Positions 7,585-62,430 are shown, numbered from the stretch's first letter. The stretch is DNA of 64,000 bases from Chloroflexota bacterium (GCA_963662335.2 CAXXVD010000002.1:416001-480000), one strand, 5' to 3'. Notes: generated by a model not told the origin, from the letters alone. Numbers and translations are program-made.

Positions 7585-7695
7585 GATGCGGGGGACAAGC
7601 CCCCGCGCTACGTGTGCGCGACAGAGGCGGGGGACAAGCCCCCGCGCTACGCATCTCGTTTCCTCTCCTCGTCGGAGAGGGTTAGGGTGAGGGGA
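7585..7695. repeat. Two copies of REP family A (gcgggggacaagcccccgcgctac) plus a family F hairpin
   Basis: Exact 24-mers ending in CTAC (GTAG on the other strand); roughly 25-30 full or partial copies counted by eye across the window. Confidence 0.85.
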
Positions 7696-18603: not shown

Positions 18604-19761
18604 ATGCGAATTGGCATTGACTTCACGGCGGCGGCGCAGCCGGCCGGCATCGGCCGCTACACGCGCTCGCTGGTGGGCGCGCTGGCGGCGCAGGCGCCAT
18701 CCGACCAGTTTATACTCCTGGCGCCCCGGCAAACCGCGCACGCCCTGGCATCGCCGCGGACGCCGCCGCGCCTCCTGGCGCAGCCAAACGTTACTCTGAG
18801 ACCGTTACCGCTATCGGAGCGTACGCTGACCCGCCTCTGGCACCGCTTGCGGCTGCCGCTCTTTGCCGACATGCTCGCGGGCGGCGTCGACGTCTTCTAC
18901 GCGCCGGACTTTGCCCTGCCGCCGCTGTGGCGCGCGCCGGGCGTGATCACCATCCACGACCTCTCGTACCGCTTCTTTCCGGAATCCTACCCGGCGTCCT
19001 TGCGCGGATACCTGGAGCGCGTGGTACCGCGCAGCGCGGCCCGCGCGCGGTTGATCCTGGCGGACTCCGCGTCCACGCGGCAGGACCTGGTGGCAACGTA
19101 TCAGGTAGACCCGGCCAGAATCAGCGTTTTGCACGGCGGCGTAGATCCGGCCTTTCGCTCCGTAGAGGCGGCTGGCGCACGGGCGGCGGTATTGCGGCGC
19201 TACGGCATCACGTACCCGTACTTCCTCTCGGTGGGGACGATACAACCGCGCAAGAACATCGCCCGCGTCATCGCGGCCATGCGCGCCGTGGTTGCCGCTA
19301 ACCTGCCGCAGCAACTGGTGCACGTGGGACGCCCGGGCTGGCTCTACGAGCGGATCTTTGCCGCGCCGCACGAGCACGACGTTGCCGCGCGGGTGCGCTT
19401 CTTGACCAATGTCGATTCCGACGACGACTTGGCGGCGCTCTACAGCGGCGCGACCGCCTTCGTCTTCCCCAGCCTGTACGAAGGGTTTGGGCTGCCCGTG
19501 CTGGAGGCCATGGCCTGCGAAACACCGGTGATTACGGGAAACACGTCATCATTGCCGGAAGTGGCGGGCGACGCGGCAATCCTGGTTGACCCGACGAATA
19601 CAACCGCCATTGGCGAGGCGCTGGTAACGCTGGCGAGCGATGAGAACGTACGGACTCAGTTCATCGGCGCGGGCAGAGAACGCGCCGCTGCGTTTACGTG
19701 GGAGCGGGCGGCGGGGGAACTGCGCGCGCACCTGGCGCGGGTGGCCCGGGGCGAACGCTGA
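18604..19761 (+). CDS. Glycosyltransferase family 4
   Basis: [20 protein letters not shown] and [18 protein letters not shown] motifs. Confidence 0.93.
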
Positions 19762-19919
19762 ACGCGCCGGCCGCCGCCATGCTCGGCTACGGCGCGGCCT
19801 CTCCCGGCAGGGCAAGGGGCGGGCTGAAGGCCGAGAAGGGCGCACCCATCTGCTATACTGTGCCAAAGCCAATGGACTTCCGTGCGGGTCATTATCATGG
19901 AATCAGCGACACTAACTCC

Positions 19920-25579: not shown

Positions 25580-26637
25580 CAATGCTGTCGCATTGACCGC
25601 TGAGGCGGAGTTCGCGCGGCAAGCAGACGACAAGGACCCGCAACCAGCAGACGTGTGTGATGCTGCGTGGGTGGTGTTCTTCCAAAAGTTGTGCGAGCAC
25701 GGCCACGATGCTGGCGATCGCTAACGTGAGGTGGACGGCGGCGCGGCTGTGGCCGAAGGGGCGGATTGCCCCCAATACATGCTTCAGCCAGCGAAAGAAC
25801 AACTCGATCTGCCAGCGCTTGCGGTAGAGCCGCACTACGTCTGCGGCGCTCAGGTCGTGGCGGTCGGTGATGAAGGCGCGTTTTCCACTTCGCCGTGCGG
25901 CTGACCACGAGGCGCATCTCCGGTAAGACCGCGCCGTTGTGGTTGTGGGCGCTGCCCAGCACGATCACCGCATCCTGCACCACCACGTCTCCTTCCGGCG
26001 TGCGCTCTCCCGTCAGCGTACGCGCACGCACCACCCGGTAGGCGGCCTGCGGGTGCAGCCGCGTCACGAAATGCACACCGGCTGTCCGCATCTGCGCAAA
26101 GACCCGGTGCGCGTAGTAGCCCAAGTCCAGCAAGACCGTCCAGCCGCGCCACGGCGTCAGTTCCCAGCCCTTGAACGCCGTCACGTCATTCACGTTCGCC
26201 AGCGTCACCTGCAATTGCCTTGGCGCCTGCATCCCCACGGCATACGCCATCTGCAGCCGTACCCCCGCCTCATGCCCTTTGTGCACGCTCCACGGACTGC
26301 ACGCCGCGCTCAACGCCAGAAAACTCCCGTCCACCGCCACCACCCGCCGCAACTGCGCCGACCCCTGCGCTGCCACCTGCCGCGCCACCACCGCCCACGC
26401 TGCGTCAAAAACACGCCACGTGAGCGAGCAGCATCCCCACATGCGCTTGCACCAAAAAGTGCTTGCGATACCGACCCACCCCCGCTACCTGCGCTGCTGC
26501 CGTCAGCGCCGGCTCCAACACCCGCCACAACCGCCCCAGTCTTGCAGTCTGTGCTACCATTACCCAGGGCTCCTTTGTAAGATGTATGGTGTTTCCTCTT
26601 ACCAAAGTAGCCCTTTCACTTTAATCCGACAACATTG
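25580..26637 (-). mobile_element. IS4-family element with frameshifted, probably internally deleted transposase, inserted in a family A REP
   Basis: IRs caatgctgtcgcattga and (reverse complement) caatgttgtcggattaa; 11-12 bp duplication gggacgagccc; DDE fragments VDGS, LDLGY and YRKRWQIELFFRWLK (YREK motif) in separate frames. Confidence 0.88.
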
Positions 26638-26916
26638 GGGGACGAGCCCCCGCGCTATGGTTCGTCATTCCCGCGCACGCGGGAATCCAGCACGTGTTGA
26701 GGCCGAGTACGATGTGCCGCGCCGCGCCCCAGATTCCTACGCTGCCCCTCAGTTCCCTTGCTGCGCTCGGCATGACGTGAAGTGCTTGGCGCATGGTTTC
26801 ACGCCAGGTTAGGTGCCTTAGCTTGACGCTCATGGACAGAGTGGCTAACCTACACACGTAGGCTGCACGCGCGTGCGGCCGGAGTGGTGACGTACTCCAT
26901 AAGAGGAGGTACAGAG

Positions 26917-28350
26917 ATGGACAAGGCGCGAGAGAGCAGACTGCATAGCGTCTCCCGGCGCGCGTTCCTGGGGGGAGCGACGCTGGCGGGCGCGGGTGTG
27001 ATGCTGGCGGCGTGCGGCATGCAGGCCGGCCCGGCCGATGACGCCGGGGAGACCCAGCAGGCGGACGCGCCGGCGCAGGAAGAGTCCAAGGCCCCGGCCG
27101 CTGAAGGCGCGGCTGAGGTCCTCCTCTGGCAGTGGGGTTCCACGTACGTGCCCGGCTTCGACGTGCTGGTGGACGAGTACAACGAGATGCAGGATGAAGT
27201 CGCCCTGACGGTTGAGAATCCGTCCGGCTACTGGGACAAGTTGCTGGCGGGGCTGGCAGCGCAGACCGGCCCGGACATCTTCCTGATGAACGGCGTGAAC
27301 ATCAAGTCGTGGATTACGGGCGGCCGCGTAGCCGCGGACCTGTCGCAGTACGTTTCCAGCGACAAGCAGGCCACCGACGACCTGGCGGCCGCGCTGCCGT
27401 CGTTCGTCGATTGGTACTCGACCGACGGCAAGGCGTCCGGCACGCCGTGGAATTACAGCACGAGCAATACCCAGTACGCCCTGGACCACGTGGTAGCCGG
27501 GGGCCTGACCCCGCCGGCCGAGCTTGGCGACGGGTGGGACTGGAACGCGTATCAAGAGTACGGGGAGAAGCTCACACAGCGTGAAGGCGAGAATATCACG
27601 CGCTTCGGCTCCGGGCACTTGCACGGCATCGAGACCGGCTGGGGCAACTTCATTCAGATGAGCGGCGGCAGCGTGCTGAGCGAGGACCGCGCGCGGTGTG
27701 TGATTGACTCGCCGGAGGCGGTTGAAGGCGTGCAGTTCTGCGTCGACATGATTCACAAACATAGAGTGGCGCCTACACCGGACGAATACGTGGCGTTGCG
27801 CGGCGAGAATCGGATACACCCCGCCTACTTCTTGACAGAGGGCTTGGTTTCGATCCACTCGGCCGGCGACTGGTACTTCAACCGCTACTTCGAAGTGCCT
27901 GATTTTCAGTGGGACGTGACCTTCCTGGCGAAGTCGCCGCGAACCGGGCAGACCGGCAACAACAGTAACTTCCGCGGCACGGTCATGAACGCGGCGACCG
28001 GCAACCCGGACGCGGCGTGGAAGTGGATGGCCCACTCGATCACGAAGCCGGTGCAAGATCGCGTAGTGGAACTCTTCAACGAGGTGCCGGGGCGGCTGGA
28101 CTCCGCGATTGAGTTCTACACCAACACAGAGACGGCGGGGCCGCCGCCGTCACGGGCTATGCTCGAGGAATCGCTGCGGGCGACCATTGCGCTGCCGACC
28201 CACGACGTGGTTACGTGGGTGCAGATGATCCGCGAGGGCATCAATCCCAGCATGAACCTGGTCTTCGCCAATGAAATCACGGTACCCGAGGGCTTGAAGC
28301 AGATCCAGGATACGTTGAACGCGATCATCGACGAGGCAGGCTCCGGGTAG
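26917..28350 (+). CDS. ABC transporter extracellular solute-binding lipoprotein (sugar-binding type), Tat signal
   Basis: SRRAFL twin-arginine motif, LAAC lipobox, GPDIF and AAWKWM motifs; GGAGGT RBS. Confidence 0.88.
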   Translation: MDKARESRLHSVSRRAFLGGATLAGAGVMLAACGMQAGPADDAGETQQADAPAQEESKAPAAEGAAEVLLWQWGSTYVPGFDVLVDEYNEMQDEVALTVENPSGYWDKLLAGLAAQTGPDIFLMNGVNIKSWITGGRVAADLSQYVSSDKQATDDLAAALPSFVDWYSTDGKASGTPWNYSTSNTQYALDHVVAGGLTPPAELGDGWDWNAYQEYGEKLTQREGENITRFGSGHLHGIETGWGNFIQMSGGSVLSEDRARCVIDSPEAVEGVQFCVDMIHKHRVAPTPDEYVALRGENRIHPAYFLTEGLVSIHSAGDWYFNRYFEVPDFQWDVTFLAKSPRTGQTGNNSNFRGTVMNAATGNPDAAWKWMAHSITKPVQDRVVELFNEVPGRLDSAIEFYTNTETAGPPPSRAMLEESLRATIALPTHDVVTWVQMIREGINPSMNLVFANEITVPEGLKQIQDTLNAIIDEAGSG

Positions 28351-29880: not shown

Positions 29881-30047
29881 AGGAGAAAAATGGGCAGATG
29901 GCGTAGACTGGGCGCGGCATGCAGCGCTAGGCGTGGGGCCGGAGCCTTCTACTCGATTATACCGCAGCCGGTAGCGCAGGTTGCAAACCTGCGCTACCGG
30001 AGGCGCGGGCGCGCCGGGTTCAATCTTGCCCCTTGCGGCTGAGCCGG

Positions 30048-30214
30048 CGGGCAGACGTAGCGCGGGGGCTTGTCCCCCGCCGGGCAGACGTAGCGCGGGG
30101 GCTTGTCCCCCGCCGGGCAGACGTAGCGCGGGGGCTTGTCCCCCGCCGGGCAGACGTAGCGCGGGGGCTTGTCCTCCGCCGGGCAGACGTAGCGCGGGGG
30201 CTTGTCCCCCGCCG
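30048..30214. repeat. Five tandem 33-bp units, each containing REP family A
   Basis: cgggcagacgtagcgcgggggcttgtcccccgc x5 with a single substitution in unit 4. Confidence 0.95.
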
Positions 30215-30350
30215 GCCCAAGCGGTATGAGGGCGCAAAGAGCGAACTCTGCACGAGGTTCCTGCCAGGGAGGACAACTTTCACTGCGCCGCCCGGCCGGA
30301 CTTGGCCGAGCACCGCTTTCGCGGGGGCATTCAGCCTCTTGGCCGGCCGT

Positions 30351-31990: not shown

Positions 31991-32314
31991 TTACTGCAGC
32001 GGCATGTTCCAGAGCGTCGCGATTCCGCGCTCTAGAAGCTCTTTCACGACTGAAGCGCCGCCAACCGATATGTCTGCGATAGTCGGATTGGCATTCTGGA
32101 AGTTGGGGTCGCGCACGCTAACCGGGGTGCCGACTGGCAGTAGTTCCTCCAATGCCTCTTTGCACTCCTGCTCCTTGTCATCCCGTGCCGCGATTGGTAG
32201 GAATACCCTCTTGATGGTATGTTCAGGGTCGTGCACTCCAACCTCTACGGTATTGAAGTCCGCGACCTTGCAGACAATGCAATGGACCGCTACCATCGCA
32301 CTCTCCTTAGCCAT
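31991..32314 (-). CDS. Degenerate thermonuclease (SNase/OB-fold)-like protein
   Basis: Spacing resembles SNase (KVADFNTVEV, KEALEELLPVGTPVSV, SVVKELLERGIA), but the catalytic DGDT, IDAPE and DxYGR motifs are not conserved. Confidence 0.5.
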   Translation of the reverse strand: MAKESAMVAVHCIVCKVADFNTVEVGVHDPEHTIKRVFLPIAARDDKEQECKEALEELLPVGTPVSVRDPNFQNANPTIADISVGGASVVKELLERGIATLWNMPLQ

Positions 32315-32510
32315 TTCGCAAGATTGTGGTAATGACAGTCAAGAGGCCGCCAAAGATGGCGATGCACAGTATGAGAATGACATGGACTTCCCACTGCGTT
32401 CTTGCCACTACCTTGTTGGTAGCTTCGATCATGCCCTTAGCCTCGGCCACGCTCTCCTTTGTAGCCAAATACTCGCACGTACGTTCGACAATCGCGATCC
32501 TCTCGTCTAG
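32307..32510 (-). pseudogene. Small coiled-coil plus TM protein, 5' end cut by IS5
   Basis: EYLATKE motif and C-terminal TM helix; the reading frame runs into the IS5 end at 32511. Confidence 0.55.
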
Positions 32511-33731
32511 GGAAGGTCTGAACAAGTCGGTTTTAGCCAGGGAAGTAGTGGTGCGGGATTGTGGTGGTCATTTGAGGAGTGTTTTGGCGATTGAGCGGGG
32601 CTGTTTTGCCCCACTGTGGGCGCTGCTGGGAGCGTTTTTTGCTCCCGCTCGTGTTTTGGGCGCACTACGCCTGTGTCAGGCCACCAAGCGGGGTGCGGTC
32701 GTGGCCAGGTTGGCCAGTCCCAGCAGCAGCGCCAGCCGTTGCGTGTATTTGTGCAGGCCCCGGTAGCGCACCGTGGCGTAGCTGTCTTCGACAAGGTCGC
32801 CGAAGCGCCGCTTCACCCAGAGGAACGGATGTTCTACCTTGGCCCTGACCGACGCTTTGCGCTGCTCTGCCAGCGCCGCCGCGCTCCCTGCCGTCAGCCA
32901 CCGCCGCTGCCCAGGCCGCAGCGCCACCTGCCAGACCACCGCGCGCCCCTGATGTTCCGGCCGCTTCTGCACGCCTATGTACCCCGCGTCTCCCCAGACC
33001 TCCTGCTCCGCCCCGTGCAGCAACACCGCCGCTTGCGTGATGTCGTGCACGTTGGCCGACGTGGTGGCAAGACTATGCACCACCCCCGTCGCCGCGTCTG
33101 CCCCAATGTGCAACTTCATCCCGAAATGCCACTCGTTCCCCTTCTTCACCTGTCGCATCTCCGGATCCCGCTCCCCCGCAAGGTTCTTCGTCGATGTCGG
33201 CGCCGCGATAATCGTCGCGTCCACCACCGTCCCCTCCCGCAGCCGCAACCCCTGTGCCGCCAGATGCCCGTTGATCTCCGCCAGCAACCGCTCGCCCAAC
33301 CGGTGCTTCTCCAACAAGTGCCGAAAGTGCAGGATCGTCGTCTCGTCCGGCAACGCGTCCCGCAGCCGCAACCCCACGAACCGCCGCACCGGTTCCACCT
33401 CGTACAGCATGTCCTCCATCCCAGGGTCGCTCAGGTTGTAGAACAACTGCACACAGTGGATCCGCGACCTTGTCGAAGACAGCAGCATCACCGACAAGGG
33501 ATACGGCGGCCGCCCCCGTCCCGCTTTGGGATAGAACGGCGCTATGCACGCCTCCAACTCCGCCCACGGGATCAAGCCGTCCATGTGCTCCAAGAACTTC
33601 TCCCGACGCGTCTTGCGCTTCTTATGCGTGTACTCCATCTCCGCAAACGACTGCTGCTCCATCACCTTACTCCTCCACTCGCGGCATTTCCTTGGTATCA
33701 TAGGTATGCCACGTACTTGTTCAGAGGTTCC
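32511..33731 (-). mobile_element. IS5-family (IS5 subgroup) insertion sequence
   Basis: IRs ggaaggtctgaacaagt and (reverse complement) ggaacctctgaacaagt; flanks CTAG and TTAG fit a YTAR target but are not identical. Confidence 0.92.
32676..33662 (-). CDS. IS5 transposase carrying two 6-aa insertions
   Basis: QQSFAEMEY, PDETTILHFRHLLE, VDATII, HFGMKLHIG, WGDAGY and RAKVEHPF motifs. Confidence 0.93.
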   Translation of the reverse strand: MEQQSFAEMEYTHKKRKTRREKFLEHMDGLIPWAELEACIAPFYPKAGRGRPPYPLSVMLLSSTRSRIHCVQLFYNLSDPGMEDMLYEVEPVRRFVGLRLRDALPDETTILHFRHLLEKHRLGERLLAEINGHLAAQGLRLREGTVVDATIIAAPTSTKNLAGERDPEMRQVKKGNEWHFGMKLHIGADAATGVVHSLATTSANVHDITQAAVLLHGAEQEVWGDAGYIGVQKRPEHQGRAVVWQVALRPGQRRWLTAGSAAALAEQRKASVRAKVEHPFLWVKRRFGDLVEDSYATVRYRGLHKYTQRLALLLGLANLATTAPRLVA

Positions 33732-33837
33732 TTAGATTCCTCGCTGCGCTCGGAATGACATTTACTTGCCCCTGTCAGCCCTCACCCCGGCCCCAGGGAG
33801 AGGGAGTTTCTTAGCGGTACCAAGCGCTTGGGCGTTG

Positions 33838-34830: not shown

Positions 34831-35933
34831 GGAGACCTTTGCGTAATCCTGGTTTTGGGCGAGACAGAGGCGTGCCGGGCTGGGAAGCGGGATTTTTCAG
34901 CTTCCGCCGGGGGGTGTTCTTCGCCCGTGCGTGAGTATTGAGCGGGCTCTTTGCCCCCGCGCAGGGGTCAGATTGGTGCTGTGGAGGTGCGGGAACCGGG
35001 TTCCCGCCGTCTCTGCTCTGCCTTTCTCGGTTAGGCCGCGCGTGCCAGCAACGTCTCCGCCGTCCGCAGGTTGTACGCTATCAGTTTGAACCACACCTCC
35101 ACGCCGTTGCGGCCCAGGCCGCGGTAGCGCACCCGCCGGTAGCCGTAACTCCGCTTCAGCGTGCCGAACACCCGCTTCACCACCGCCCGCACCGGCGCTA
35201 TCCGCGCGTTGCGCTCCTGCTGCCACTGCGGCAATTCCCGCTGGTGCTTGTGCGACCGGTGCATGATGCAATCGTCTATCCCCTGTGACCGCAGCCACTC
35301 TCGCCGCCGCTTGGACTCGTACGCCTTGTCTGCGTACACCGCCTCCTCGTCACCACAGACCAAGTGGTCCGCCACCTCACTCTCAGATACTTTGGCCGGC
35401 GTCAGTTCCGCCCGCCGCACCAACCCCGACCCTAAATCCATCCCCACGTGCGCCTTGTACCCATAGTGCGCTTGCCGCTTGGCCCCGCTGCGCGTCCAAT
35501 CCGCGTCCGGGTCTTTCTCCCCTTTCTGCCCTAACTCCGCTTTCACCGACGGCCGCCGCACCTGCGCTTCCACCAGCGTCGCGTCCAGCAACGTCCCGTT
35601 CTTCACCACCAACCCTCGCTCCTCAAACTGCGCTCCCAACTCCGCAAACAACGCCTCGCTCAATCCATGCTCCGCTATCTGCGCCCGAAACCGGCTCAGC
35701 GTCGAGTGATCCGGCGTCTTGTCTGCCAATCCCAACCCCACGAACCGCCGGAACGAGAGCCGATCCCGCAACATCTCCTCCATCACCGGATCCGATAGGT
35801 TGTACCACTGCTGCAACAACAACACCTTCACCATCACCAACGGCGGATAGCTTGGCCGACCCCGCTCAGACGCATAGATGCCCGACACCAACTCCCCCAT
35901 CCGCTCCCAATCCACCGCCGCCAGGATTCACGC
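34831..35933 (-). mobile_element. Second IS5-family element, 5'-truncated transposase, both ends abutting family F REPs
   Basis: End ggagacctttgcgtaatcctgg at 34831; partial inverse ccaggattcacgc at 35921. Confidence 0.7.
35031..35915 (-). pseudogene. IS5-family transposase lacking its N-terminus
   Basis: GRPSYPP, PDHSTLSRFR, LDATLV, YGYKAH and YADKAY motifs; begins at VDW, and VKRVFG replaces the catalytic VE. Confidence 0.8.
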
Positions 35934-35977: not shown

Positions 35978-36796
35978 CTAGGCCTCGAGCACGTGCTCCT
36001 CAATCGCCACGGCCACGCCGTCTTCCTCGAAGGTGGCGGTCACGAAGTCCGCCGCCGCTTTCACGCGCGGGGCGCCGTTGCCCATGGCCACGCCGAAGCC
36101 GGCCGTCTGCACCAGGCTCAGGTCGTTCAGGTTATCGCCGATGCCCATCACCTGCGCCAGCGGGACGCCGAGCGCGTCGGCAAGCTGTGTCAGGGCGCGC
36201 CCCTTGTTCACGTCCGGATGAATCGCCTCGGTGTAGTAGGGGTGCGACTTGGTGATGCCCAGGCGGTCGCCAAAGTGGGCGGCGAGTTCTTCCACCAGGC
36301 GGTCTGTCTTATCCTCATCCAGGTTCACCAGCACCAGTTTGGTGGGGGGATTTTCCGCCACGAACGCCGCCAAGTCCGGTACCACGGTAGCCTCCACGTT
36401 GGCAATGCGCATGTAGACCTCCGCTTCCGGCGTCAGGGTCTCCACGTGCAGGCGGTCGTCGACGAAGGCGTTCACCTGGATGCCCCGCGCCCGCGCCAGT
36501 TCCACCACTTCAAGCGCCAGCGCCGTCGGCACGGCCAGGTGGAACGTCGTCTCGCCGCTGACCGGGTGGCGCACCAGGCCGCCCTGGTAGCAGATGAGCG
36601 GCGCGGTGATGTTTAGCTCCTGGGCAAAGGGCGCCATGGCCGCGAACATACGTCCGCTGGCAAGCGTGACCGTGACCCCTTGCGCCTGGGCCGCGGCAAT
36701 CGCCCGCTTCACCCGGGGCGAGATCGTCAGGCTATGGTCGATGAGCGTGCCGTCCAAGTCGATGGCGATCAGCCGGTAGCCGGGCTTGGCGCTCAT
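35978..36796 (-). CDS. Cof-type HAD-IIB phosphatase
   Basis: DLDGTL, ASGR, NKG and GDNLND motifs; start overlaps the nfo stop. Confidence 0.93.
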   Translation of the reverse strand: MSAKPGYRLIAIDLDGTLIDHSLTISPRVKRAIAAAQAQGVTVTLASGRMFAAMAPFAQELNITAPLICYQGGLVRHPVSGETTFHLAVPTALALEVVELARARGIQVNAFVDDRLHVETLTPEAEVYMRIANVEATVVPDLAAFVAENPPTKLVLVNLDEDKTDRLVEELAAHFGDRLGITKSHPYYTEAIHPDVNKGRALTQLADALGVPLAQVMGIGDNLNDLSLVQTAGFGVAMGNGAPRVKAAADFVTATFEEDGVAVAIEEHVLEA

Positions 36797-37697: not shown

Positions 37698-38047
37698 AAG
37701 CCGGCGGCCGGGGTGGGGCTGGCGGACCGAGACGTGATGGCTTCAAGAGGCGAGGTTCCTGTCATTCCGAGCGCAGCGAGGAATCTACGCGCGCCCGCAC
37801 GAGATTCTTCGTCGCTGCGCTCCTCAGAATGACAGAGCTTGAGAAGGATGACAGCCTGAAAAGGCGCTCTGTGCATGCGCGGTGTCTACGGCCGCCGCGT
37901 GGGGTGTGTCCGCGCCTGCTCATGCCGCGCACGAGCGCCGCCGCCGTGACGCTATAATGTGGAATGTGGGCCGGCCGCCGCGACGAGCGCGCCGCGCGCG
38001 TGAATGCGGGCACGGACGGCGCAAGAGCACAGGTAAGTAGCCGACGA

Positions 38048-38192
38048 AGAGGCGGGGGACAAGCCCCCGCGCTACGACATTTGCGCAGTGGCGGGGATTG
38101 AGACCCCGTGATACGGCATATGCGCAGTGGCGGGGGCTGAGACCCCGTGATACGGCATATGCGCAGAGGCGGGGAACGAGCCCCCGCGCTAC
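38048..38192. repeat. Four tandem 39-bp units derived from REP family A, inner two diverged
   Basis: Outer units gcgggg(g)ac(a/g)agcccccgcgctac; inner units gcgggg..tgagaccccgtgatac. Confidence 0.8.
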
Positions 38193-38229
38193 GATCCGTC
38201 AGTGAATTGTGGAAGAGAGTTGCGGTCGT

Positions 38230-41032: not shown

Positions 41033-43030
41033 ATGGCCACAACGGCAACAACAAACGCGGCAACGCGGGCCGAGGCCCGCGTGCGCGAAACGCGCTACAC
41101 CCACGGCGAGGTCGTGGCGCTGGCGCGGCTGATTCTGCGCGACGCGCGCCTGAACGTCGTTGCGGGCAGCGAGTGGGCCTACAGCGCCCGCGGCCACACC
41201 CTCGCGTACCCGTCGCGGGTGCTGGACACCTGGCCCGGCACCAGCGTCGTCGGCGCGATCTGCCAGCAGATGGCGGAAGCGCGGCACACCGGCGTCATGG
41301 GTGAGCGGGCACTCCAGAGCTTTGCCCGCATCGCGCCACTGGACTTCGGCGCCGTCATGCCGTTCGCGCGTTTCGTCAACGAACTGCGCGTCAACCGCAT
41401 GCACCTGGAGCGGCACCCCGGCTCGGCGCGTTTCCTGCGGGCGCTCTACGCCGACAATCCCCAGTGGGCGTCGGCCCGGCGGCGCAGCACGCCCTTGCGG
41501 GAACAGGTGGAGCAGGGCTTGCTGGCGCGCTGGCTCCAAGAGGTGTGGCCGGAGCGCGCGCGCCCGCCGCGGGTTGGCGGCGCAGCGCACCGCTACGTGG
41601 AGGCGCTGTGGCCCGGCGTGCGCGACGCGCTGCTGCGGGACTCCATGCCGCAGATGTTGGACGTGCTCGCGCGGCGGATGCTGCCGATTCTGGACGAACT
41701 GGTGGCGGAAGACGACCGGCGCGCCCGCCAGCGGCCCGAGACCGAACGGCCTACGCCCGAAGAAGACGCGAGCGCCGAGGACGAAGCCGAGGCCCTGGGT
41801 GAGTTGCGCATCGAAACGGTCGTGGCTGAGGCCGGTTCAGCCGCCGCCCGGCCAGAATCCGGCGAGCGGCAAGATTCCGCCGATTCCAGGTCCGATTCCG
41901 AGCCGGAGCCAGGCTCAGCGGCTGAAGACGGCGGCCCGGCCAAGGTGGAGAGCAGCCCCCACGAGCAGGCCGAATTGCGCGACGACGCCGAGCCGGGCGC
42001 GCAGCCGCAATCCCGTCCCCAAGGCCCGCCGCGCCTGATCGACCCGCGCATGTTCAAGGCGCGTCCCGGCCAACTCACGCCCATGCCGCGCACCATCGTG
42101 CAGGGGCTGGGCGAGCGGCCGGCCGCGCCCAAGACCGACTACGAGAACTTCGACTACCGCGCGGCCGTGCGGCGGCTGGAACCGGCCATCCGGCGCTCGC
42201 TGGACGGCGAGGCCGGACGGAAGGGCCTCAAGGAGATCATGATGCGCCGCCGCTTTGGCACCCTGGAACCGGGGCGGCGTCCCCGCCGGCGGCGCGGCGG
42301 CGACAGCGGCGAGATCGACACCGACCACGTGGAGCGCCTGGTCGTCGCGCCGGAACAAGCCTTCCTCAAGGGCGTGCGCGCGCCGCGGGCGGACCACCAG
42401 AAGGACTTTGCCGCTATCATCCTCATAGACGTCAGCGGCAGCATGGTGGCCAAGGGCTACTCGACGCGCAAGTTCGACCACACCGTGAACGCCGCGATCA
42501 TCTTCAGCGAGATCCACGAGCGGCTGCGCATTCCCTACCAGATGATGGCGTTCTCCGAGGAGGTCTGGCGGCTGCGGACGTTCGAAGAATGCGCGTTCGC
42601 GACGCAGGTGGTGGCGAACGAGCGCACCTACACGCCCAAAGACCTGAGCGGCGTCTTTCGCGCCATGTACGAGCAGCCGCACAAGAAGACGGACGACGCC
42701 GGCGCCGTGCGCCAGGCGGTGGCGGACGTGCAGCAGCAGAAGGGATTCAAGACTATACTGGTCTTAACGGACGGCATCTCCTCCAACCGGCGGAAGTTGC
42801 AGGAGGTGCTGCTGCGCGTGGAGCGGCGCAACGGGATGGTCGGCGCCGGCGACGCGCTGGGCATCATCGTCTTCGGCATCGGCGTGCCGGGCGACGCGCT
42901 GAGCGAATCCTACGTGGCGCAGGCCGACGGCAAATTCCTGCGCTGCCTGCAAACGGTGGTGGTGCCCGACGTGTCCCGGCTGCCGCGCATGATACAGACG
43001 ACGATCGAGCGCCGCATCCGCGGCGTATAG
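41033..43030 (+). CDS. VWA-domain protein (CobT-like) with acidic low-complexity linker
   Basis: MIDAS motif ILIDVSGSM, T in KTDD, LVLTDG; E/D/P/S/A-rich central region. Confidence 0.88.
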   Translation: MATTATTNAATRAEARVRETRYTHGEVVALARLILRDARLNVVAGSEWAYSARGHTLAYPSRVLDTWPGTSVVGAICQQMAEARHTGVMGERALQSFARIAPLDFGAVMPFARFVNELRVNRMHLERHPGSARFLRALYADNPQWASARRRSTPLREQVEQGLLARWLQEVWPERARPPRVGGAAHRYVEALWPGVRDALLRDSMPQMLDVLARRMLPILDELVAEDDRRARQRPETERPTPEEDASAEDEAEALGELRIETVVAEAGSAAARPESGERQDSADSRSDSEPEPGSAAEDGGPAKVESSPHEQAELRDDAEPGAQPQSRPQGPPRLIDPRMFKARPGQLTPMPRTIVQGLGERPAAPKTDYENFDYRAAVRRLEPAIRRSLDGEAGRKGLKEIMMRRRFGTLEPGRRPRRRRGGDSGEIDTDHVERLVVAPEQAFLKGVRAPRADHQKDFAAIILIDVSGSMVAKGYSTRKFDHTVNAAIIFSEIHERLRIPYQMMAFSEEVWRLRTFEECAFATQVVANERTYTPKDLSGVFRAMYEQPHKKTDDAGAVRQAVADVQQQKGFKTILVLTDGISSNRRKLQEVLLRVERRNGMVGAGDALGIIVFGIGVPGDALSESYVAQADGKFLRCLQTVVVPDVSRLPRMIQTTIERRIRGV

Positions 43031-43819: not shown

Positions 43820-44235
43820 CCGTCCCGCAAGAGACTGCGGCCCGTGGCGGCGGCGACGATTGCGTACAGCGGATCGATGACCGACCACATGACCAGATAG
43901 GGCATCTGCTGCACGTCGGCTTCCAAGGTCAGGAAGTCGAACCAATTCCAAAAGAACCACAAGGCCAGCAGAATGGCGGCCCACTTGGCGGCGTTGGCCG
44001 CCAGTGACGCGGCGGCCCCGGCCTCAGAATCCGCGGCCTGCTCCGCCGCCAACCCGCGGCGCACGTTCACCACCACGGCAACCACGATGCCCAACGCCAT
44101 GAACCAATCCAAGACGCTCCACACCGCGATGGGGTCGAGCGCGTCGCGGTAGAACGGGCTGAATACGAAGTGCACCGCCACAACGAGGGCGCTGCCGAGC
44201 AAGTATATGCCTAAGGGTTTCCGTGCGGCGTCCAT
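43816..44235 (-). CDS. Hypothetical membrane protein (about four TM helices)
   Basis: Hydrophobic ORF with AGAAAGGA RBS; no family recognised. Confidence 0.7.
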   Translation of the reverse strand: MDAARKPLGIYLLGSALVVAVHFVFSPFYRDALDPIAVWSVLDWFMALGIVVAVVVNVRRGLAAEQAADSEAGAAASLAANAAKWAAILLALWFFWNWFDFLTLEADVQQMPYLVMWSVIDPLYAIVAAATGRSLLRDG

Positions 44236-44560: not shown

Positions 44561-46966
44561 TTAGCAGCGGGAGTAGCCGCAGACCAGGCATTTCTCGCAG
44601 CCTTCCTCGTAGACCACGCCGGCCGCGCCGCAATCCGGGCAGATCTCGCCGTGGCGCGCCTCGCGGGTTGGGGCTTCCGCCTGCGCCCCCGGCTGCAAGC
44701 CCAGTTGCACCACCGACGCCTCCTCGGCGGCGCCGTTCGCGCCGGTGGGAATCTCGTAGATCTCGGCAATCACCTGCGCGATGGCGTCCGGCACCGAGAG
44801 CACGCGGTTGGGGCCGATGCCCATCACGTCCAGGGAGCCGATGCCGCGCAGGTGCTTGTAGTGCTCCTTGATCGGCACGCCGCTGCGCAGGCCGAGCGTA
44901 ATCGAGCGCGCCAGCGCCTCCAGATAGGCCTGGTCGGCGGTGCCGGCCTTGCCCAGCGTCAGGAAGATCTCGATTGGCCGCCGTTCCTCGCCGTCGCCGT
45001 CGTGGTTGATGGTCACGTAGAGGTCGCCCCGCGCCGTGACCTTCTTCACGGTCACGCCGGAGACCACGGCCGGGCGTTTGCGCGGGTGCATGGCTACCGG
45101 CACGGCCGGGCCGCGCGGCTGCTCTGTGTCTGCGGCTTTTTCACCAGCCTCTTCCTTCTTCTCCTCCACGCGGGAGAGCACCGGCGTGCGCGAACCGTCG
45201 CGGAAGAACGTGATGCCCTTGCAGCCCAGGTCGTAAGCCAGGGTGTAGAGCTTCTCCACGTCCGCTACCTCGTAGGAATTCGGCGCGTTCACGGTTTTGG
45301 AAATGCTGGAGTCGGTGAATTCCTGCACGATTGCCTGTACGCGCACGTGGTCTTCCGGCCGCAGGTCGTTGCTGCTGGCGAAGTAGTCCGGCACAGGCTC
45401 GCCCGCGTGGGCGTCCTGCCACTCCTTGAAGAGCGGGTGGTAGAGAATGTGCTCGCCGGTGCGATCCACGCGCTTCATGGCAAAGTCGAAGACCGGCTCG
45501 ATGCCGCTGGAAACGCCGGAGAGCAGCGAGGTGGTGCCGGTGGGCGCTTGGGTGAGCAGCACGCCGTTGCGGACGCCGTGCGCGGCAATCTGCGCTTGCA
45601 GCGCGGCCGGCAATTGGCGGATGAAGTCGCCCTGCAGGAACTTCTCAGAATCGAAGTGCGGAAACGGCCCTTTCTCCTGGGCGATTTCAACCGACGCGCT
45701 GTAGGACGCGTCGCGGATGGTGCGGTAGATGCGCTCGACCACCGGCATCGACTCCGCGCTGCCGTAACGCACTTTCAGCTTGATGAGCGCGTCGGCCAGC
45801 CCCATGGTGCCCAGGCCCGTGCGGCGCGTGCCGTGGCGCTGCTGGCGCTCGTTGTCGGCGATGAAGTAGGGCGTGGCGTCGATGACGTTATCCAGGAAGC
45901 GGATGGCGACTTTGGACGTCTCGGCCAGCAGGTCGTAGTCCATCGCGCCGTCGCGCACGAACGCCGAGAGATTGATCGCGCCCAGATTGCAGACGCCCCA
46001 TTCGGGCAGACCCTGCTCGCCGCAGGGGTTCACGCAGCGGATTTGCTCGAAGTACCAGGTGTTGGAACGCTTCTGGTAGCGCTCCATGAAGACCAGGCCG
46101 GGCTCCGCTGAGCGCCAGGCGGCCTCGCAAATCTTCTGCCACATCTCCCGCGCCTTGACCGTGCGCTGGACGGTGACGGCCTTGCCCCGCGCGCGCCACG
46201 CGGCCAGATCGCCGTTCCAGACCTCGTCGTACTCCGGGTCGGTGGTGTCCGGAAAGACCAACTCCCAGTCGCCGTCGGCTTTCACCGCCTCCATGAAGCT
46301 ATCCGAGGCGCAAATGGAGAGGTTGGCGTGGTTGATGCGGGTGAGGTCGGTCTTGACCGTGATGAATTCCTCGATGTCCGGGTGCCAATCGTCCAGCATG
46401 AGCATGAGCGCGCCGCGGCGGGAGCCGCCCTGCTGGATGACGTCGCCGGTGGCCACCGAGTACAACTCGCCCCACGAGCACGGCCCGCTGGCGGTGCCGT
46501 TCACGGACCGGATATAGGAACCGCGCGGCCGTAAGCTGGAAAGATTAATGCCCACGCCGCCGCCGCGCGCCATGATCTCGGTCATGACGCTCAGGTTCTC
46601 CAGAATCCCGCCGCGGCTGTCGTGCGGCGAGGGGATGACGTAGCAGTTGTAGAAGGTGACCTCATGCCCCGTGCCGGCGCCGGCCAGGATGCGGCCCCCC
46701 GGCACGAACTTGAAGTCCCGCAGCGCGTGGTAGAATCTTTCTTCCCACGCGGGGCGGATCGGCTCTTCTTCTACGGCGGCAATGCCCCGGGCCACCCGCC
46801 GCCACATCTGCTCCGGATACTCCTCCAATGCCGCGCCGGTCTCGTCCTTGAACGAATAGCGGTCGGCAAAGACCTTCTGCCGGATGCCGTCGAGCATAGT
46901 GCCGTCTGCTACGTGGGCGACGGGCTGCCCGTTGGCGCTCTTGCCGTTGGTGTGAATGACTGCCAT
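44561..46966 (-). CDS. nrdJ: Adenosylcobalamin-dependent (class II) ribonucleotide reductase
   Basis: PGGRILAGAG, FYNCYV, GGSRRGA, VNPCGEQ, CNLG and APTGT motifs; C-terminal SVPD and CPDC..EGCEKC..CG zinc ribbon. Confidence 0.95.
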   Translation of the reverse strand: MAVIHTNGKSANGQPVAHVADGTMLDGIRQKVFADRYSFKDETGAALEEYPEQMWRRVARGIAAVEEEPIRPAWEERFYHALRDFKFVPGGRILAGAGTGHEVTFYNCYVIPSPHDSRGGILENLSVMTEIMARGGGVGINLSSLRPRGSYIRSVNGTASGPCSWGELYSVATGDVIQQGGSRRGALMLMLDDWHPDIEEFITVKTDLTRINHANLSICASDSFMEAVKADGDWELVFPDTTDPEYDEVWNGDLAAWRARGKAVTVQRTVKAREMWQKICEAAWRSAEPGLVFMERYQKRSNTWYFEQIRCVNPCGEQGLPEWGVCNLGAINLSAFVRDGAMDYDLLAETSKVAIRFLDNVIDATPYFIADNERQQRHGTRRTGLGTMGLADALIKLKVRYGSAESMPVVERIYRTIRDASYSASVEIAQEKGPFPHFDSEKFLQGDFIRQLPAALQAQIAAHGVRNGVLLTQAPTGTTSLLSGVSSGIEPVFDFAMKRVDRTGEHILYHPLFKEWQDAHAGEPVPDYFASSNDLRPEDHVRVQAIVQEFTDSSISKTVNAPNSYEVADVEKLYTLAYDLGCKGITFFRDGSRTPVLSRVEEKKEEAGEKAADTEQPRGPAVPVAMHPRKRPAVVSGVTVKKVTARGDLYVTINHDGDGEERRPIEIFLTLGKAGTADQAYLEALARSITLGLRSGVPIKEHYKHLRGIGSLDVMGIGPNRVLSVPDAIAQVIAEIYEIPTGANGAAEEASVVQLGLQPGAQAEAPTREARHGEICPDCGAAGVVYEEGCEKCLVCGYSRC

Positions 46967-47503: not shown

Positions 47504-49706
47504 ATGCCACCGGAATACGATGCAGCGACGTTGCGCGAATACTGCGGCACGGTCGCATTGACGCCCACCGGCGACGTGGCGGCCGGCTCGTGGGGCACGT
47601 GGACGTTCACCTTTACCGTTGGGACGTACGGCATGGACGACCGTTCCAACCTGCGCCTGGTGATGCGGGGCGTCTGCGACTGGGGCAAACCGAATTTCAC
47701 CGATCCCGCCGCGCCGAACTACTGCCGCGTCCACACCGACGGGAACGCCGAATTGCGGGTGCACTTCGACCCGGAAAACCACGTGCGGCCCTGGCGGCGC
47801 ACCATCCACGTGCACGTGCACGATGGCACCCTTAAGGCAGGCGAGCACATCTGGATCGTGCTGGGAGACCAATCCGGCGGCAGCCCCGGCAGCCAGGCGC
47901 AGACGTTCGTGGAACGCACCTTCGAGTTCAAGTTCTTTGCCGACAACTTCGGCACGCTGCAATTCCGCGAACTGCCCGACGCGCCGGTGGTGCGCATCGC
48001 GGCGGGACCGGTGGCGCATCTGGTGGCGCAAGCGCCGAGCATGGCGGCGATGGGAGAAGAATTCGACGTGCTCGTGCGCGCCGACGACGCCTGGGGCAAT
48101 ACGGCGGACGGCTTTCGCGGCGCGGTCGGCCTCTATCTGCCCCATCAGGCGGAGCCGCTGGCGCGCCACACGTTCAGCGCGGAGGACGGCGGGATCCACC
48201 GCTTCACCGGCCTGACGATTCAAGAGACCGGCATTATCCGCCTGGAAGCGCGCAGCACAAAGCCGGCGTTCAGCGTTCGCAGCAATCCCATCCACGTGCA
48301 GGCGGACGCGCCCGCCGTGCGCCTCTACTGGGGCGACATGCACGCCCAGACCGAGGAGACCGTGGGCACCGGCAGCCCGGACGAGTACTTTACCTACGCC
48401 CGCGACCACGCCGGCGTGGACTTCCTGGGCATCCAGGGCAATGATTTTCAAATTACCGCTGAATTCTGGTATGAGTTACAAGAAATCGTGAAGCGCTACA
48501 ACGACCCCGGCCGTTTTCTCACGCTGCTCGGCTACGAGTGGTCCGGCAACCATCCGGCCGGCGGCGACCACAACGTGCACTTTCTCGGCGATGAAGGCCC
48601 GCTGCACCGCTCGTCCCACTGGCAGGTACCGGGGGACCCGGGGCCGTGGGAAGACACGTGCCCGGTCTCGAAACTGGTTGACCTCTACCGCGGGCGGGAC
48701 GACGTCTTTCTGATTCCCCACATCGGCGGGCGGCGCGCGAACCTCGACTACTTTGACTCAGAGGTCATGCCCCTCATCGAGATTGCCTCGGCCCACGGTT
48801 GGTTCGAGTGGGTCTGGCAGGAGGCGCTGGCGCGCGGCTATATCACCGGCTTTGCGGCCGGCAGCGACGACCACACAGGACGTCCCGGCACCAGCCGCCC
48901 TACAAACGGCGGCATGTTCGGCGTGCGCGGCGGCTTGCTCGGCACGTACGCGCCGGCGCTCCAGCGCCGCTCGATCTGGGACGCCATCCGCGCCCGGCAT
49001 ACGTTCGCCTCCACCGGCGCGCGCATGATTCTGCACGTGACCGCCGACGGACACCCGATGGGCGAGGTTTTTTTGTAACACCAATCCGCCGGTGTTAAGC
49101 GTGCAAGTGGCCGGTACCGCCCCGCTGGAGAAAGTGGAGGCGCTGCGCGGCACGGAGGTGGTCTACTCTCATCCCCTCGTGGAGCGGGAAAGCGGCCTCC
49201 CGCGCAAGATTCGCGTCGGCTGGCGCGGCGCGCGCGTGAAAGACCGCACCCGCCGCCTGCGCTGGGACGGCAGCCTGCGCGTGGAGAACGGCCGCATCCT
49301 GGCGGCTAAGGGCTGGGCCTTCGACGACCCCACGGAAGGCATCGTGGAGTGGAACGAAGAGAGCGTGCGCTGGGTCTCGCAGACCTCCGGCGACTGGGAC
49401 GGCGTGGCGCTGGAAATTGCCGGTGATGCCGAGACCACGCTTCACTTCACGTCCGCGCCCGCCACTTTTGCGGTGCGGCTAGACGAACTCGCCGCTGGCA
49501 GCGAAATCGTGCGCCCCGGCAGCACCGGCGTCGGCAGCGAAGTCCGTATCAGCCACGACCATGAGGAGCGCGCGCCCTATGACGTCGCCTTCACGTTCCA
49601 AGACCCGCAACCGCTGCAAAGAGACCTTACCCCCTATTTCGTCCGCGTCACCCAATACGACGGCGAGATGGCCTGGTGCAGTCCGGTGTTTGTAAAGAAG
49701 GCGTAG
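47504..49706 (+). pseudogene. DUF3604-like PHP-domain protein split by a one-base frameshift (47504-49078 and 49092-49706)
   Basis: YWGDMHAQ, GYEWSG, GGDHNV, IPHIGG and SDDHTGRPG motifs; second part ends YFVRVTQYDGEMAWCSPVFV; removing one T from the run at 49068-49074 joins them. Confidence 0.8.
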
Positions 49707-52605: not shown

Positions 52606-52827
52606 TCTTGGTTCACCCTCTTGGTGGGAGAGGACTAGGGTGAGGGAGAGAGTGCTCGCCAGCGGGGCACAAGGCCCCGTGTTGCGATTCTAGATTCCTC
52701 GCTGCGTTCGGAATGACATTAGCTGTCAACACCCCTAGTGAAGAATATCTTGTCAGCGAATTGCTCAACACTAACAAGGAATGACGTGAACTTGCCTGCG
52801 CAAAGCGTGATCCAGTACCAACACAGC

Positions 52828-59101: not shown

Positions 59102-59355
59102 CGAAGCGCCGAGCCCACGCCCATCGTTAGCATACCATTAGGCGAATCGACGCGCCGCCAAGCACTTTGCCGAGATGGTGGGCGCGGTTTGCGGCAAGAA
59201 GCGGGGGACAAGCCCCCGCGCTACGGTGATGGTGGGCGCGGTTTGCGGCTAAGAGCGGGGGACAAGCCCCCGCGCTACGGCTTGTTCGCTGGGATCAAGT
59301 GCACGTGCAGCACCCGGGGCGCTAGGCAGGTCCAGTTGACTAGCGGCCGGCGCCG

Positions 59356-60621: not shown

Positions 60622-62274
60622 CTAGCCGCCCATGCGGCGGTATTCGTTCACGTCGATGTCAACCGCCACCAGCGCGGGCTTGTTCAGCGCCAGTGCTTCC
60701 GGCAGCGCGGCGGCGCAGTCTTCTTCCTTGTCAATATGAAACGCGGGCAGGCCGAACGCCGCCGCCAGCGCCAGGTAGTCGGTCTCGCCGAAGTCGTTCT
60801 CGCGTCCCTCGTAGCCGCGCTCTTCCGACTTCATGCGAATCAGGGCCAGGGTAGAATCTACGAAGACGACGATGAGGAACGGCGTCTCGCTCGGCGGCGC
60901 GAGACGCTTGACGGTTTCCAGTTCACCGGCGTACATCAGCAGGCCGCCGTCGCCGGTGACGCAGACTACCGGCCGTTCGGGCGCGCGGAGTTTGGCCGCC
61001 AGCGCCGCCGGCACGCCAAAGCCCATGGTGGAGAGGCCGTTGGAGACCAGGAACGTCCGCGGCTGGGTGCTCTGCCACCACTGGCACGCCAGCAGCTTGT
61101 GCGACCCCACGTCGCAGGCAAAGACCGTCTCCGGCGGCGTGAGTTCGCGCAGCGCGGTGAGCACGGCCTGCGGCGCGACGCCAGTTCTTGGCGGGGACGC
61201 GGCGCCCGTGCCTTGCGGCGCGAGCAGCCGCCGGATCTTCTCCCGGCAGGCGGCCGCGGCGCGCGTGCCCCACTCGCCCTGGTGGGTGAGTTCCGGCGTG
61301 AGCCGGCGCACGGTGGCGTCCAGGTCGCCGACCAGCGCGTAGTCCGCGCCAAAGGCGGAATCGACCTCCGTGTGCGGATGGATGGCGATGGTCGTCGCGT
61401 CCGTCTGCCAGGGATGGATGAAGTCGGAACCGTCGAGGCCCACCGCCAGGATGCAATCGGCCTGGGCGAGAAACTCATCCACAAGGGCGTAGCCGTAGAC
61501 GCTGTGAATGCCGGCAAAGAGCGGGTGGTCTTCCGGAAAGACGCCCTTGCTCATGGGCATGTTCACCACCGGCGCGCCCCACTGCTCCGCCAGCGCCACT
61601 ATCGCATCCTGTTCCAGGTGGTGATTGGCCTCCAGGCCCAGCACGATCACCGGCGCGTCGCAGGTGGTGAGGCGCGCCAGGGCCGTGCGCGGCAGGGGCG
61701 CGGCGTCCAGCACGCCCAGCGGCCGGGCCGCGGTCTGGAGCGGCGGCGCGGCCAGCGTCTGGCGCGCCACGGCCGCCGGCAGCGCCAGGTGCACGGGCCC
61801 CGGCCGCCCCTGCGCCGCCACCGCCCAGGCGTAGGCCAGCGCGCCGGCGACGTTGGCGGGCGTGAGCCGTACGTTCCACTTGGTGATGGGGCGCAAGAGT
61901 TCCAGCAGCGGCGCGTTCTGGTGGGTGGCAAACTCCACCGTAGGGTCTTCGAAGTCGGCGGTGATGACGATCAGCGGCAGCCGCGCCAGAAACGCGTCGG
62001 CCACGGCGTTGATGATGTTCGTGGCGCCGGGGCCGAGGGTGGTGAGGAAAACCGCCGGTTCGCCGCTGAGGAAGGCGGTATTTTGCGCCAGAAACGCTGC
62101 CGTGTTCTCGTGGTGCACAAGCTGGAAGTCGATCCCCTCGGCGTAGCAGGCGTTGATGAGGTCCACGTTCTCGCCGCCGGTCACGCCCCAGAAGCGTTGA
62201 ATGCCCTGCTGGCGCAGGAATCTGGCGACGTACGCGGCGACGGTAAGGTCTGAATGCCGTGAAGTTGCGGTCAT
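60622..62274 (-). CDS. Thiamine-diphosphate-dependent enzyme (acetolactate synthase-like)
   Basis: HHE, TLGPGATN, PGPVHL, DVGSH, STMGFGVPAA and GDGG motifs. Confidence 0.9.
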   Translation of the reverse strand: MTATSRHSDLTVAAYVARFLRQQGIQRFWGVTGGENVDLINACYAEGIDFQLVHHENTAAFLAQNTAFLSGEPAVFLTTLGPGATNIINAVADAFLARLPLIVITADFEDPTVEFATHQNAPLLELLRPITKWNVRLTPANVAGALAYAWAVAAQGRPGPVHLALPAAVARQTLAAPPLQTAARPLGVLDAAPLPRTALARLTTCDAPVIVLGLEANHHLEQDAIVALAEQWGAPVVNMPMSKGVFPEDHPLFAGIHSVYGYALVDEFLAQADCILAVGLDGSDFIHPWQTDATTIAIHPHTEVDSAFGADYALVGDLDATVRRLTPELTHQGEWGTRAAAACREKIRRLLAPQGTGAASPPRTGVAPQAVLTALRELTPPETVFACDVGSHKLLACQWWQSTQPRTFLVSNGLSTMGFGVPAALAAKLRAPERPVVCVTGDGGLLMYAGELETVKRLAPPSETPFLIVVFVDSTLALIRMKSEERGYEGRENDFGETDYLALAAAFGLPAFHIDKEEDCAAALPEALALNKPALVAVDIDVNEYRRMGG

Positions 62275-62430
62275 GGGAGTGCGCAGAATAGTGTAAGGGT
62301 GGTGATAGCGTTCATCGCATAGCTTGCGCGTCGCAGGTGGCTGTGTCAACTTGGGGCGACTCTTGCCTAGCCCTGCAAGTTGCTTGGAGGTGGATTGCGG
62401 CAGCGGCGAAGCGCCTCCCTCACCCTAGCG

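Follow-up and report, generated by a model that had tools for sequence, protein, structure and literature searches.

Two copies of one short DNA unit lie in frame and in opposite orientation within a single IS5-family transposase gene of a Chloroflexota bacterium, and the same unit recurs, again in frame, in an unrelated gene of another Chloroflexota genome. On balance, we lean towards the reading that this sequence is a discrete, recurrent 18-bp insertion unit with the fixed 16-nt core GACCTTGTCGAAGACA, which enters at a GC dinucleotide and is then flanked by GC on either side. Finding an identical 18-nt unit in frame in unrelated genes of different genomes was unexpected, and the unit would represent a very small, apparently undescribed kind of recurring insertion. 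The window, by which we mean the whole stretch of DNA that was analysed, comprises 64,000 nt with a G+C content of 65.9% (Chloroflexota bacterium, GCA_963662335.2 CAXXVD010000002.1:416001-480000).

The host insertion sequence and its two inserts

The element that carries the two inserts is an ordinary member of the IS5 family with respect to transposase, inverted repeats and probable target. The whole insertion sequence extends from 32511 to 33731 on the minus strand (ends read by eye) and measures 1221 bp, or 1185 bp without the two inserts. Its terminal inverted repeats were located by an inverted-repeat search at 32511-32527 (plus strand, beginning with GGAAGG) and at 33715-33731 (minus strand), the match covering 22 nt with 86% complementarity when flank bases are included. 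IS5-family elements duplicate 4 bp of their target and prefer YTAR. The tetranucleotide CTAG at 32507-32510 and its partner TTAG at 33732-33735 differ in one base and are probably a 4-bp target duplication with one mismatch. A REP-like repeat of family D12 (four copies) abuts the element at 33732-33761 on the plus strand, and an unoccupied copy of this repeat at 263-294 is identical to 33730-33761.

The transposase gene (32676-33662, minus strand) encodes 328 amino acids from the probable start MEQQ; the open reading frame from 32676 to 33701 on the same strand is intact and corresponds to 341 amino acids. The protein matches the Pfam families DDE_Tnp_1 (76.8 bits) and DUF772 (56.4 bits), and with 298.6 bits against the NCBIfam model transpos_IS5_4 (cut-off 140) it belongs to this family. 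In the protein collection the identical 328-residue protein, which is the window's own transposase, is present on one contig (P0122). No second copy of the insertion sequence was found within the 64-kb window, and its plasmid relatives reach an identity of at most about 68%. An alignment of 80 sequences, made up of the window protein and 79 homologues with 71-93% identity, was used to assess its state of preservation. The window protein departs at 8 positions from residues that are conserved to at least 90%, while the other 79 homologues show a median of 3 such departures and nine of them reach 8 or more. The host element looks old and apparently single-copy, and it is possibly decaying. The AlphaFold model of the transposase is poor (mean pLDDT 55.9), and no solved structural homologue was found by sequence search.

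Within this gene, the sequences GCTGTCTTCGACAAGGTCGC at 32781-32800 and GCGACCTTGTCGAAGACAGC at 33464-33483 are exact 20-nt reverse complements, as the preliminary description of this DNA had stated and our recheck confirmed to the base. In the inverted-repeat search the pair extends to 23 nt with 96% complementarity, the perfect part being 20 nt and the distance between the arms 657 nt. With uniform base frequencies, the expected number of perfect 20-nt inverted pairs is about 7e-7 for the insertion sequence and 0.002 for the window, and a chance origin of the pair is negligible. Allowing up to three mismatches, the 16-mer has five matches in the window compared with a mean of 0.29 in 100 shuffles, none of which reaches five. 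Only two exact copies of the 16-nt core are present in the window, both inside the insertion sequence.

The insert close to the N-terminus of the protein (site 1, 33464-33483, plus strand) contains the core on the plus strand at 33466-33481 with GC on each side. It encodes LSSTRS, residues 61-66 of the window protein, and falls within the N-terminal DUF772 region. The insert close to the C-terminus (site 2, 32781-32800, minus strand) contains the core on the minus strand at 32783-32798, likewise with GC on each side, and encodes DLVEDS, residues 289-294. It is located four residues past the K of an R-x3-E-x6-K stretch of the DDE transposase (read by eye), which we take to be the stretch named the R/E/K motif. 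Where the homologues point to one GC only, both sites have the 16-nt core with GC before and after it. Each site has thereby gained a net 18 bp, the placement of which is ambiguous by 2 bp. The 20-mer is free of stop codons in all six frames, which read ATLSKT, RPCRRQ, DLVEDS, AVFDKV, LSSTRS and CLRQGR. Such openness is in itself unremarkable, as it was found in 3245 of 20000 shuffles of the same composition (16%) and in 10246 of 20000 random 16-mers with the composition of the window (51%). The unit has no terminal inverted repeats, its core starting with GACC and ending with GACA as read by eye. Six contexts of 32-41 nt were folded as DNA, and none gave a fold stronger than shuffled sequences (z between -1.41 and +0.20).

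Both 18-bp inserts are foreign to the IS5 family. The possibility, raised in the preliminary description, that homologous transposases carry these residues natively is not borne out: the 12 insert residues are the only columns of the 80-sequence alignment occupied by the window protein alone, and all 79 aligned relatives have gaps there. The remaining observations made at the outset, namely two stop-free inserts in frame and in opposite orientation, each a 16-mer with a duplicated GC whose removal restores typical IS5 text, were reproduced. Without the inserts the protein reads ...SVMLRIHCVQ... and ...RRFGYATVRYRGL..., as does the 90%-identical homologue P0002. Three word-indexed searches and a cluster look-up supplied a wider set of 321 proteins. 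Of these, P0009, P0121 and P0122 alone contain an insert peptide, whichever of the six frames is considered, and the other 318 have none. These three carriers are the sole members of one 90%-identity cluster in the collection and lie on different contigs of 3,269,340, 3,278,480 and 866,876 bp, the last being that of P0122. When the C-terminal 61 residues served as query, the carrier cluster scored 115 bits and the next protein, which is free of the insert, 90 bits.

The carriers also reveal the order of events. Two further assemblies, from which P0009 and P0121 derive, encode DLVEDS, while LSSTRS occurs only in P0122 among the 321 fetched proteins. In P0009, which contains DLVEDS and is 96% identical to the window protein, site 1 is empty at the protein level, the sequence there being MLRIH. 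Because P0009 combines a filled site 2 with an empty site 1, the filling of site 2 preceded the divergence of these genomes, and that of site 1 came later. Judging from this comparison of protein sequences, site 1 is filled in the window's lineage only, and the two insertions took place at different times. P0009 and P0121 are truncated N-terminally at or near site 1, which was considered as a clue to a larger element. This idea was rejected since insert-free homologues start likewise: the starts MLRIHCVQLFYN (three times) and MQLFYNLSDPGM (once) were found in unrelated insert-free IS5 homologues. A dedicated search for short N-terminal fragments yielded none closer than 79% identity.

Recurrence of the unit in other Chloroflexota genomes

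Genome contigs were scanned with the 16-mer, which gave at least 119 loci; none of those listed comes from the genome of the window or from the contigs that carry P0009 and P0121. Flanks of 2000 nt were examined for 80 of the 119 loci listed. The 16-mer is a common coding word: among the loci listed, nearly all are single matches in ordinary coding sequence of unrelated taxa, and the longest open reading frame reads VFDKV through the 16-mer in 52 of the 119 and LVED in about 48. No IS5 relative was detected by tblastn in the 119 loci listed. Four of them carry a Chloroflexota or Anaerolinea label, and here two loci stand out, L028 (record OZ244775.1) and L076 (record OZ219802.1). GC on both sides of the core was found at one of the four Chloroflexota-labelled loci and at none of the 115 other listed loci.

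At the first of these loci the unit is present twice in direct succession (1981-2018), the order being GC (1981-1982), GACTTTGTCGCAGACA (1983-1998), GC (1999-2000), GACCTTGTCGAAGACA (2001-2016) and TC (2017-2018). The two core copies agree with the core of the window at 14 of 16 and 16 of 16 positions, respectively, and an adjacent second core copy occurs only here among the 119 loci listed. The host is a gene of the MmgE/PrpD family (Pfam) on the minus strand, which encodes 483 amino acids and belongs to another Chloroflexota genome. Its product contains a 12-residue insertion, DVFDKVAVCDKV, between PLDAET and AEAVF, which is absent from all ten aligned homologues; one homologue in this alignment, P0322, is 81% identical (exhaustive HMMER search). 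The insertion corresponds to 36 nt in frame, which is exactly 2 x 18 nt, and its edges coincide with the unit boundaries. Both units have the same phase as those in the window and are read as an AVFDKV-type peptide, i.e. in a third reading frame. Elsewhere, the tandem unit found only chance-level matches, with a best E of 0.7 in plasmids and 0.07 in phages.

Over a stretch of 26 nt, the MmgE/PrpD-family locus agrees with site 2 at 24 positions, and 6 nt of this stretch correspond to native flank of the insertion sequence. This gene was considered as the donor of the insert via the shared stretch GCTTCGGC; the idea was rejected, as the stretch is itself an insertion there. Several REP-like repeat families are common to this locus and the window. 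The core contains C-GAA-G and the variant of the MmgE/PrpD-family locus C-GCA-G, both of the GNA mini-hairpin type. GNA mini-hairpins are described as unusually stable in the relevant parts of two papers (PMC13037366, PMC3201870). Both substitutions of the variant fall in the putative loops, for which the chance is about 1 in 8, so that this is weak evidence.

The second locus carries GC, core and GC in the spacer ahead of a Cpn60 gene, beginning 5 nt past the stop codon of a Cpn10 gene, and matches site 2 over 22 nt. Since flank frequencies predict about 0.8 matches with GC on both sides by chance among the 119 loci listed, this copy taken alone is not significant.

The known set comprises five units at four sites, distributed over three loci in three genomes. 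The phase is constant in all five units, with GC 5' of the core in five of five and GC 3' of the core in four of five (TC at the MmgE/PrpD-family locus), and the cores of four units are identical. The four bases before the 5' GC are TTCG, ATCC, ACCG and TTCG, and nothing consistent follows the 3' GC; possibly there is a weak target preference for YCSGC. Three of the four sites are located inside genes. As three different frames are used (DLVEDS, LSSTRS and the AVFDKV type), the conserved factor is the DNA and not the protein. So far as the compared sequences indicate, the unit is not tied to its host insertion sequence.

Possible origins of the unit

If the sequence is a discrete insertion unit, it would enter in either orientation and sometimes in tandem. 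The first entry into the transposase gene would have taken place at the C-terminal site, which is shared with two related genomes, and the second at the N-terminal site in opposite orientation. The perfect 20-nt inverted repeat would then result from two entries in opposite orientation, as a by-product and not as a functional pair. We propose that entry might start at a break whose strands are offset by the 2 nt of a GC, or at a 3' end that terminates in GC, that this end might be extended or filled from a fixed short template ending in GC, and that it might then be rejoined on GC. A GC end combined with a fixed template would account for the unchanging phase, for what looks like a 2-bp duplication, and for the occurrence in both orientations and in tandem. 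GC is self-complementary, so that either orientation is allowed; a template ending in GC would permit repeat addition, and tandem copies fit re-entry at a regenerated GC. With a length of 18 nt and no stop codon in any frame, an entry only adds six residues, and therefore the unit can persist in genes.

The agent could be a transposase-like nuclease, an HUH enzyme, a recombinase, or a reverse transcriptase with a fixed template. Forty open reading frames of the window were scanned; they are ordinary chromosomal genes (topoisomerase I, DNA polymerase I, ribonucleotide reductase and others) and two IS5-family transposases. Among these 40 the two transposases are the only mobile-DNA genes, and no plausible mobilising enzyme or recombinase was found. 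We know of no mechanism of the proposed kind, and the literature searched (open-access papers and preprints) yielded no report of an 18-bp in-frame recurrent unit. Two insertions in one 1.2-kb gene are surprising if the element is rare, except where it hops locally or meets a tolerant, decaying insertion sequence. The set also comprises only three loci with five units, drawn from a listing of at least 119 loci.

The preliminary description had read the inserts as either a frame-preserving micro-element or an excision scar. This reading gained support from the MmgE/PrpD-family gene, which contains the same 18-nt unit with the same edges and GC flank, and also from the copy in the chaperonin spacer; it may be taken either way. 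As an excision scar, the unit would be what remains of a longer element that inserts at GC with a 2-bp duplication and always leaves the same 16 nt on exit, so that site 1, site 2 and the sites at the two other loci would be old insertion sites of that element. The discrete and identical boundaries, GC on both sides and the occurrence in both orientations are in line with such an origin, and tandem scars could come from re-insertion into the regenerated GC. Comparable eukaryotic remnants, the Stowaway/mariner footprints, consist of duplicated target and element ends in the sections of the source that deal with them (PMC4561436). However, no sequence in the window begins or ends with half of the core: neither of the 8-mers GACCTTGT and CGAAGACA is found there outside the two inserts, and 10-mers of the core halves, with one mismatch allowed, found only unrelated matches in the window. 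The longer element ending in the core sequence that had been suggested at first was thus looked for within the 64-kb window without success. Moreover, the core as read by eye is not an end followed by the reverse complement of that end, as inverted termini would give, and footprints usually vary between events, whereas four of the five cores here are identical. To our knowledge, a deterministic 16-nt footprint is known for no bacterial IS family. We regard the excision of a longer element as an improbable origin of the unit.

A different origin is conceivable for site 1, which could be a local inverted copy of site 2 made by template switching. A nascent strand ending in GC would jump about 660 nt, copy on the other strand to the next GC and jump back, while site 2 and the units of the MmgE/PrpD-family gene would derive from other donors. 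Site 1 is indeed the younger of the two, and its exact reverse complement lies at a distance of 663 nt; both junctions have 2 nt of GC microhomology. Since the core contains no internal GC (by eye), a copy that enters at one GC would naturally exit at the next. Short switches which produce inverted copies of nearby sequence are treated as an established class of mutation in the pertinent part of one study (PMC5453318). On the other hand, the copy must match the exact edges of the earlier insertion, although roughly 100-200 GC dinucleotides were available nearby. The origin of site 2 is left unexplained, as is the presence of the same unit in the same phase, twice, in a different gene and genome. 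With up to three mismatches allowed, no donor for site 2 was found in the window, and the only second copy at the MmgE/PrpD-family locus is the tandem neighbour. Untargeted copying driven by microhomology could use any dinucleotide as its junction, and the constant phase speaks against it. Template switching as the source of site 1 therefore seems to us quite improbable.

The preliminary description had further suggested that the two sites could invert the roughly 660-bp core of the transposase gene, in which case the 20-nt inverted repeats would be recombination sites switching the gene on and off. A perfect 20-nt inverted pair does flank a 663-bp gene core, but this idea is scarcely credible: a colinear frame crosses both sites here and site 2 in two relatives, P0009 has one of the two sites filled, a recombinase gene is absent among the 40 scanned open reading frames of the window, and elsewhere the unit is single (chaperonin spacer) or in direct tandem (MmgE/PrpD-family gene). 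The proposed link of the tgtcgaag core with REP family E has also been given up; this 8-mer occurs eight times on both strands of the window (four in REP family E, two in the inserts and two elsewhere), which is at chance level, and no similarity extends beyond it.

An adapter or an assembly error could finally have put in the 18-mers; in favour of this, site 1 is seen filled in one assembly only, and P0122 is on one contig in the collection. Such an artefact is very unlikely, given that site 2 is found in proteins from three assemblies (contigs of 866,876, 3,269,340 and 3,278,480 bp) and that the tandem pair of the MmgE/PrpD-family gene has diverged; in addition, the gene sequence on either side of the clean, in-frame inserts is colinear. 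We know of no common Illumina, PacBio, ONT or 454 adapter that the unit matches.

Returning to the discrete insertion unit, we speculate, as a tentative extension, that Chloroflexota harbour an active system by which a fixed unit of 18 nt is written at GC dinucleotides in the DNA. Such a system could be either the smallest transposable unit known or a polymerase or reverse transcriptase with a fixed template, acting in a telomerase-like manner. If this is true, an 18-nt unit that is open in six frames can spread through coding DNA as additions of six residues, and would be a source of six-residue protein insertions which standard annotation never flags. A unit that is repeatedly written would be smaller by far than the mobile repeats known to us, REPs of 20-40 bp (PMC3733652) included. 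Its sequence would also provide a handle for finding the enzyme or the template through co-occurrence of genes or RNAs across genomes. Read as a scar or as the product of template switching, the inserts would still be a rare case from bacteria in which the order of events is dated. For the host insertion sequence nothing special follows; it is an old, probably decaying IS5 copy which has tolerated two harmless additions.

Comparison with known mobile repeats and short insertions

MITEs are tens to hundreds of bp long and numerous in a genome. The unit, at 16+2 bp, is far below this usual range, and two copies are present in 64 kb. With MITEs it shares a target-site duplication, visible as GC on both sides at site 1, site 2 and the chaperonin spacer and as GC and TC at the MmgE/PrpD-family gene. 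In contrast to MITEs, which have terminal inverted repeats, the unit is devoid of them. An invertible DNA switch needs a site-specific recombinase nearby and occurs in both orientations within a population; no recombinase is encoded among the 40 scanned open reading frames of the window.

REPs are very short repeats (20-40 bp) of high copy number, as characterised in the part of the literature consulted for them (PMC3733652). The unit resembles REPs and REPINs, which are mobilised by RAYT HUH transposases, in being very short, and the window is full of REPs headed by GTAG. However, REPs lie outside genes and form stem-loops tagged with GTAG or CGTC, whereas the unit is untagged, forms no significant stem-loop and is intragenic at three of four sites.

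With the footprints of Stowaway and mariner elements, the unit has in common that a short remnant of fixed size lies between 2-bp target duplications in either orientation, as far as the footprint sections of the paper describe them (PMC4561436). Those footprints have a TA duplication and consist of a few, variable bases, whereas here the duplication is GC and no parent element is found in the window. Quasipalindrome and template-switch mutations give an inverted copy of nearby sequence with microhomology at the junctions, according to the pertinent part of PMC5453318, and this is like the relation between site 1 and site 2. The template-switch model predicts no constant unit and phase across unrelated genes of different genomes.

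In its effect, an in-frame insertion into genes, the unit comes nearest to Rickettsia palindromic elements (RPEs) together with some MITEs. RPEs are portrayed, in those portions of PMC10969869 that concern them, as selfish elements which lie in frame within protein-coding genes and are tolerated as an extra peptide. The unit has the same feature, being in frame in unrelated genes, twice in the IS5 transposase and again in the MmgE/PrpD-family gene. Unlike RPEs, which are palindromic and about 100-150 bp long in the same portions of that source (PMC10969869), it measures 18 bp and has no significant fold. The unit thus lacks those defining features of MITEs, REPs and RPEs that were tested, and it resembles all three as a short, recurring and tolerated insertion.

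Apparent landing site of the IS5 element

The IS5 element is adjoined at 33730-33761 by a REP-like repeat, the head of which is the TTAG target of the IS, and further copies of this repeat are located at 263-294, 26747-26778 and 52688-52719. Because the 32-nt copy at 263-294 is identical to the one at 33730-33761 and is unoccupied, carrying no IS, the element appears to have landed on a YTAG that heads a repeat family. At the edge of the element, a 72-aa ORF on the minus strand (32307-32525) starts within the IS terminal repeat, reads outward and is without a Pfam match; it may be spurious, or it may be what is left of a gene that the IS interrupted.

Related IS5-family transposases

A second IS5-family transposase gene is encoded on the minus strand at 35031-35915, only 1.3 kb from the first. 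Its product of 294 aa, with DDE_Tnp_1 and DUF772 domains, is a distant relative of the first transposase (33% identity), and no copy of the 18-bp unit was found in this gene. Close homologues from other assemblies (P0001, P0003, P0015, P0017 and P0114) reach 358-463 aa because of apparent internal segmental duplications, in which 40-135 residues of the transposase itself are repeated. These duplications are either real or assembly errors.

REP families and other short repeats

The GTAG-headed REP family GTAGCGCGGGGGCTTGTCCCCCGC is very abundant in the window, where it occupies 30044-30248, an array of six 33-nt units arranged head-to-tail, and about 24 more places, for example 7587-7653, 38044-38200 and 59199-59290. 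Additional REP families are represented by GTAGCGCAGGTTGCAAACCTGCGCTAC and ATTCCCGCGAAAGCGGGAAT, and no RAYT-like gene was detected among the 40 window ORFs scanned. Outside the REP families, distant coding regions of the window have several exact repeats of 15-32 nt in common (19737-19765, 46784-46799 and 48266-48280; 48291-48312, 36441-36455 and 27057-27071; 61636-61667, 25954-25970 and 62326-62340; 41565-41588 and 44036-44061), and these may represent motifs of paralogues, tracts of gene conversion or further short insertions.

The unit in a groES-groEL spacer

In the Chloroflexota-labelled locus L076 (1990-2030), the filled groES-groEL spacer has the unit bracketed by the 7-nt direct repeat CACCGGC, and when the 18 nt are taken out, the spacer reads as a tandem of two CACCGG. 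The CACCGGC repeat could mean that the event duplicated a longer stretch, or it could stem from a tandem that was already there.
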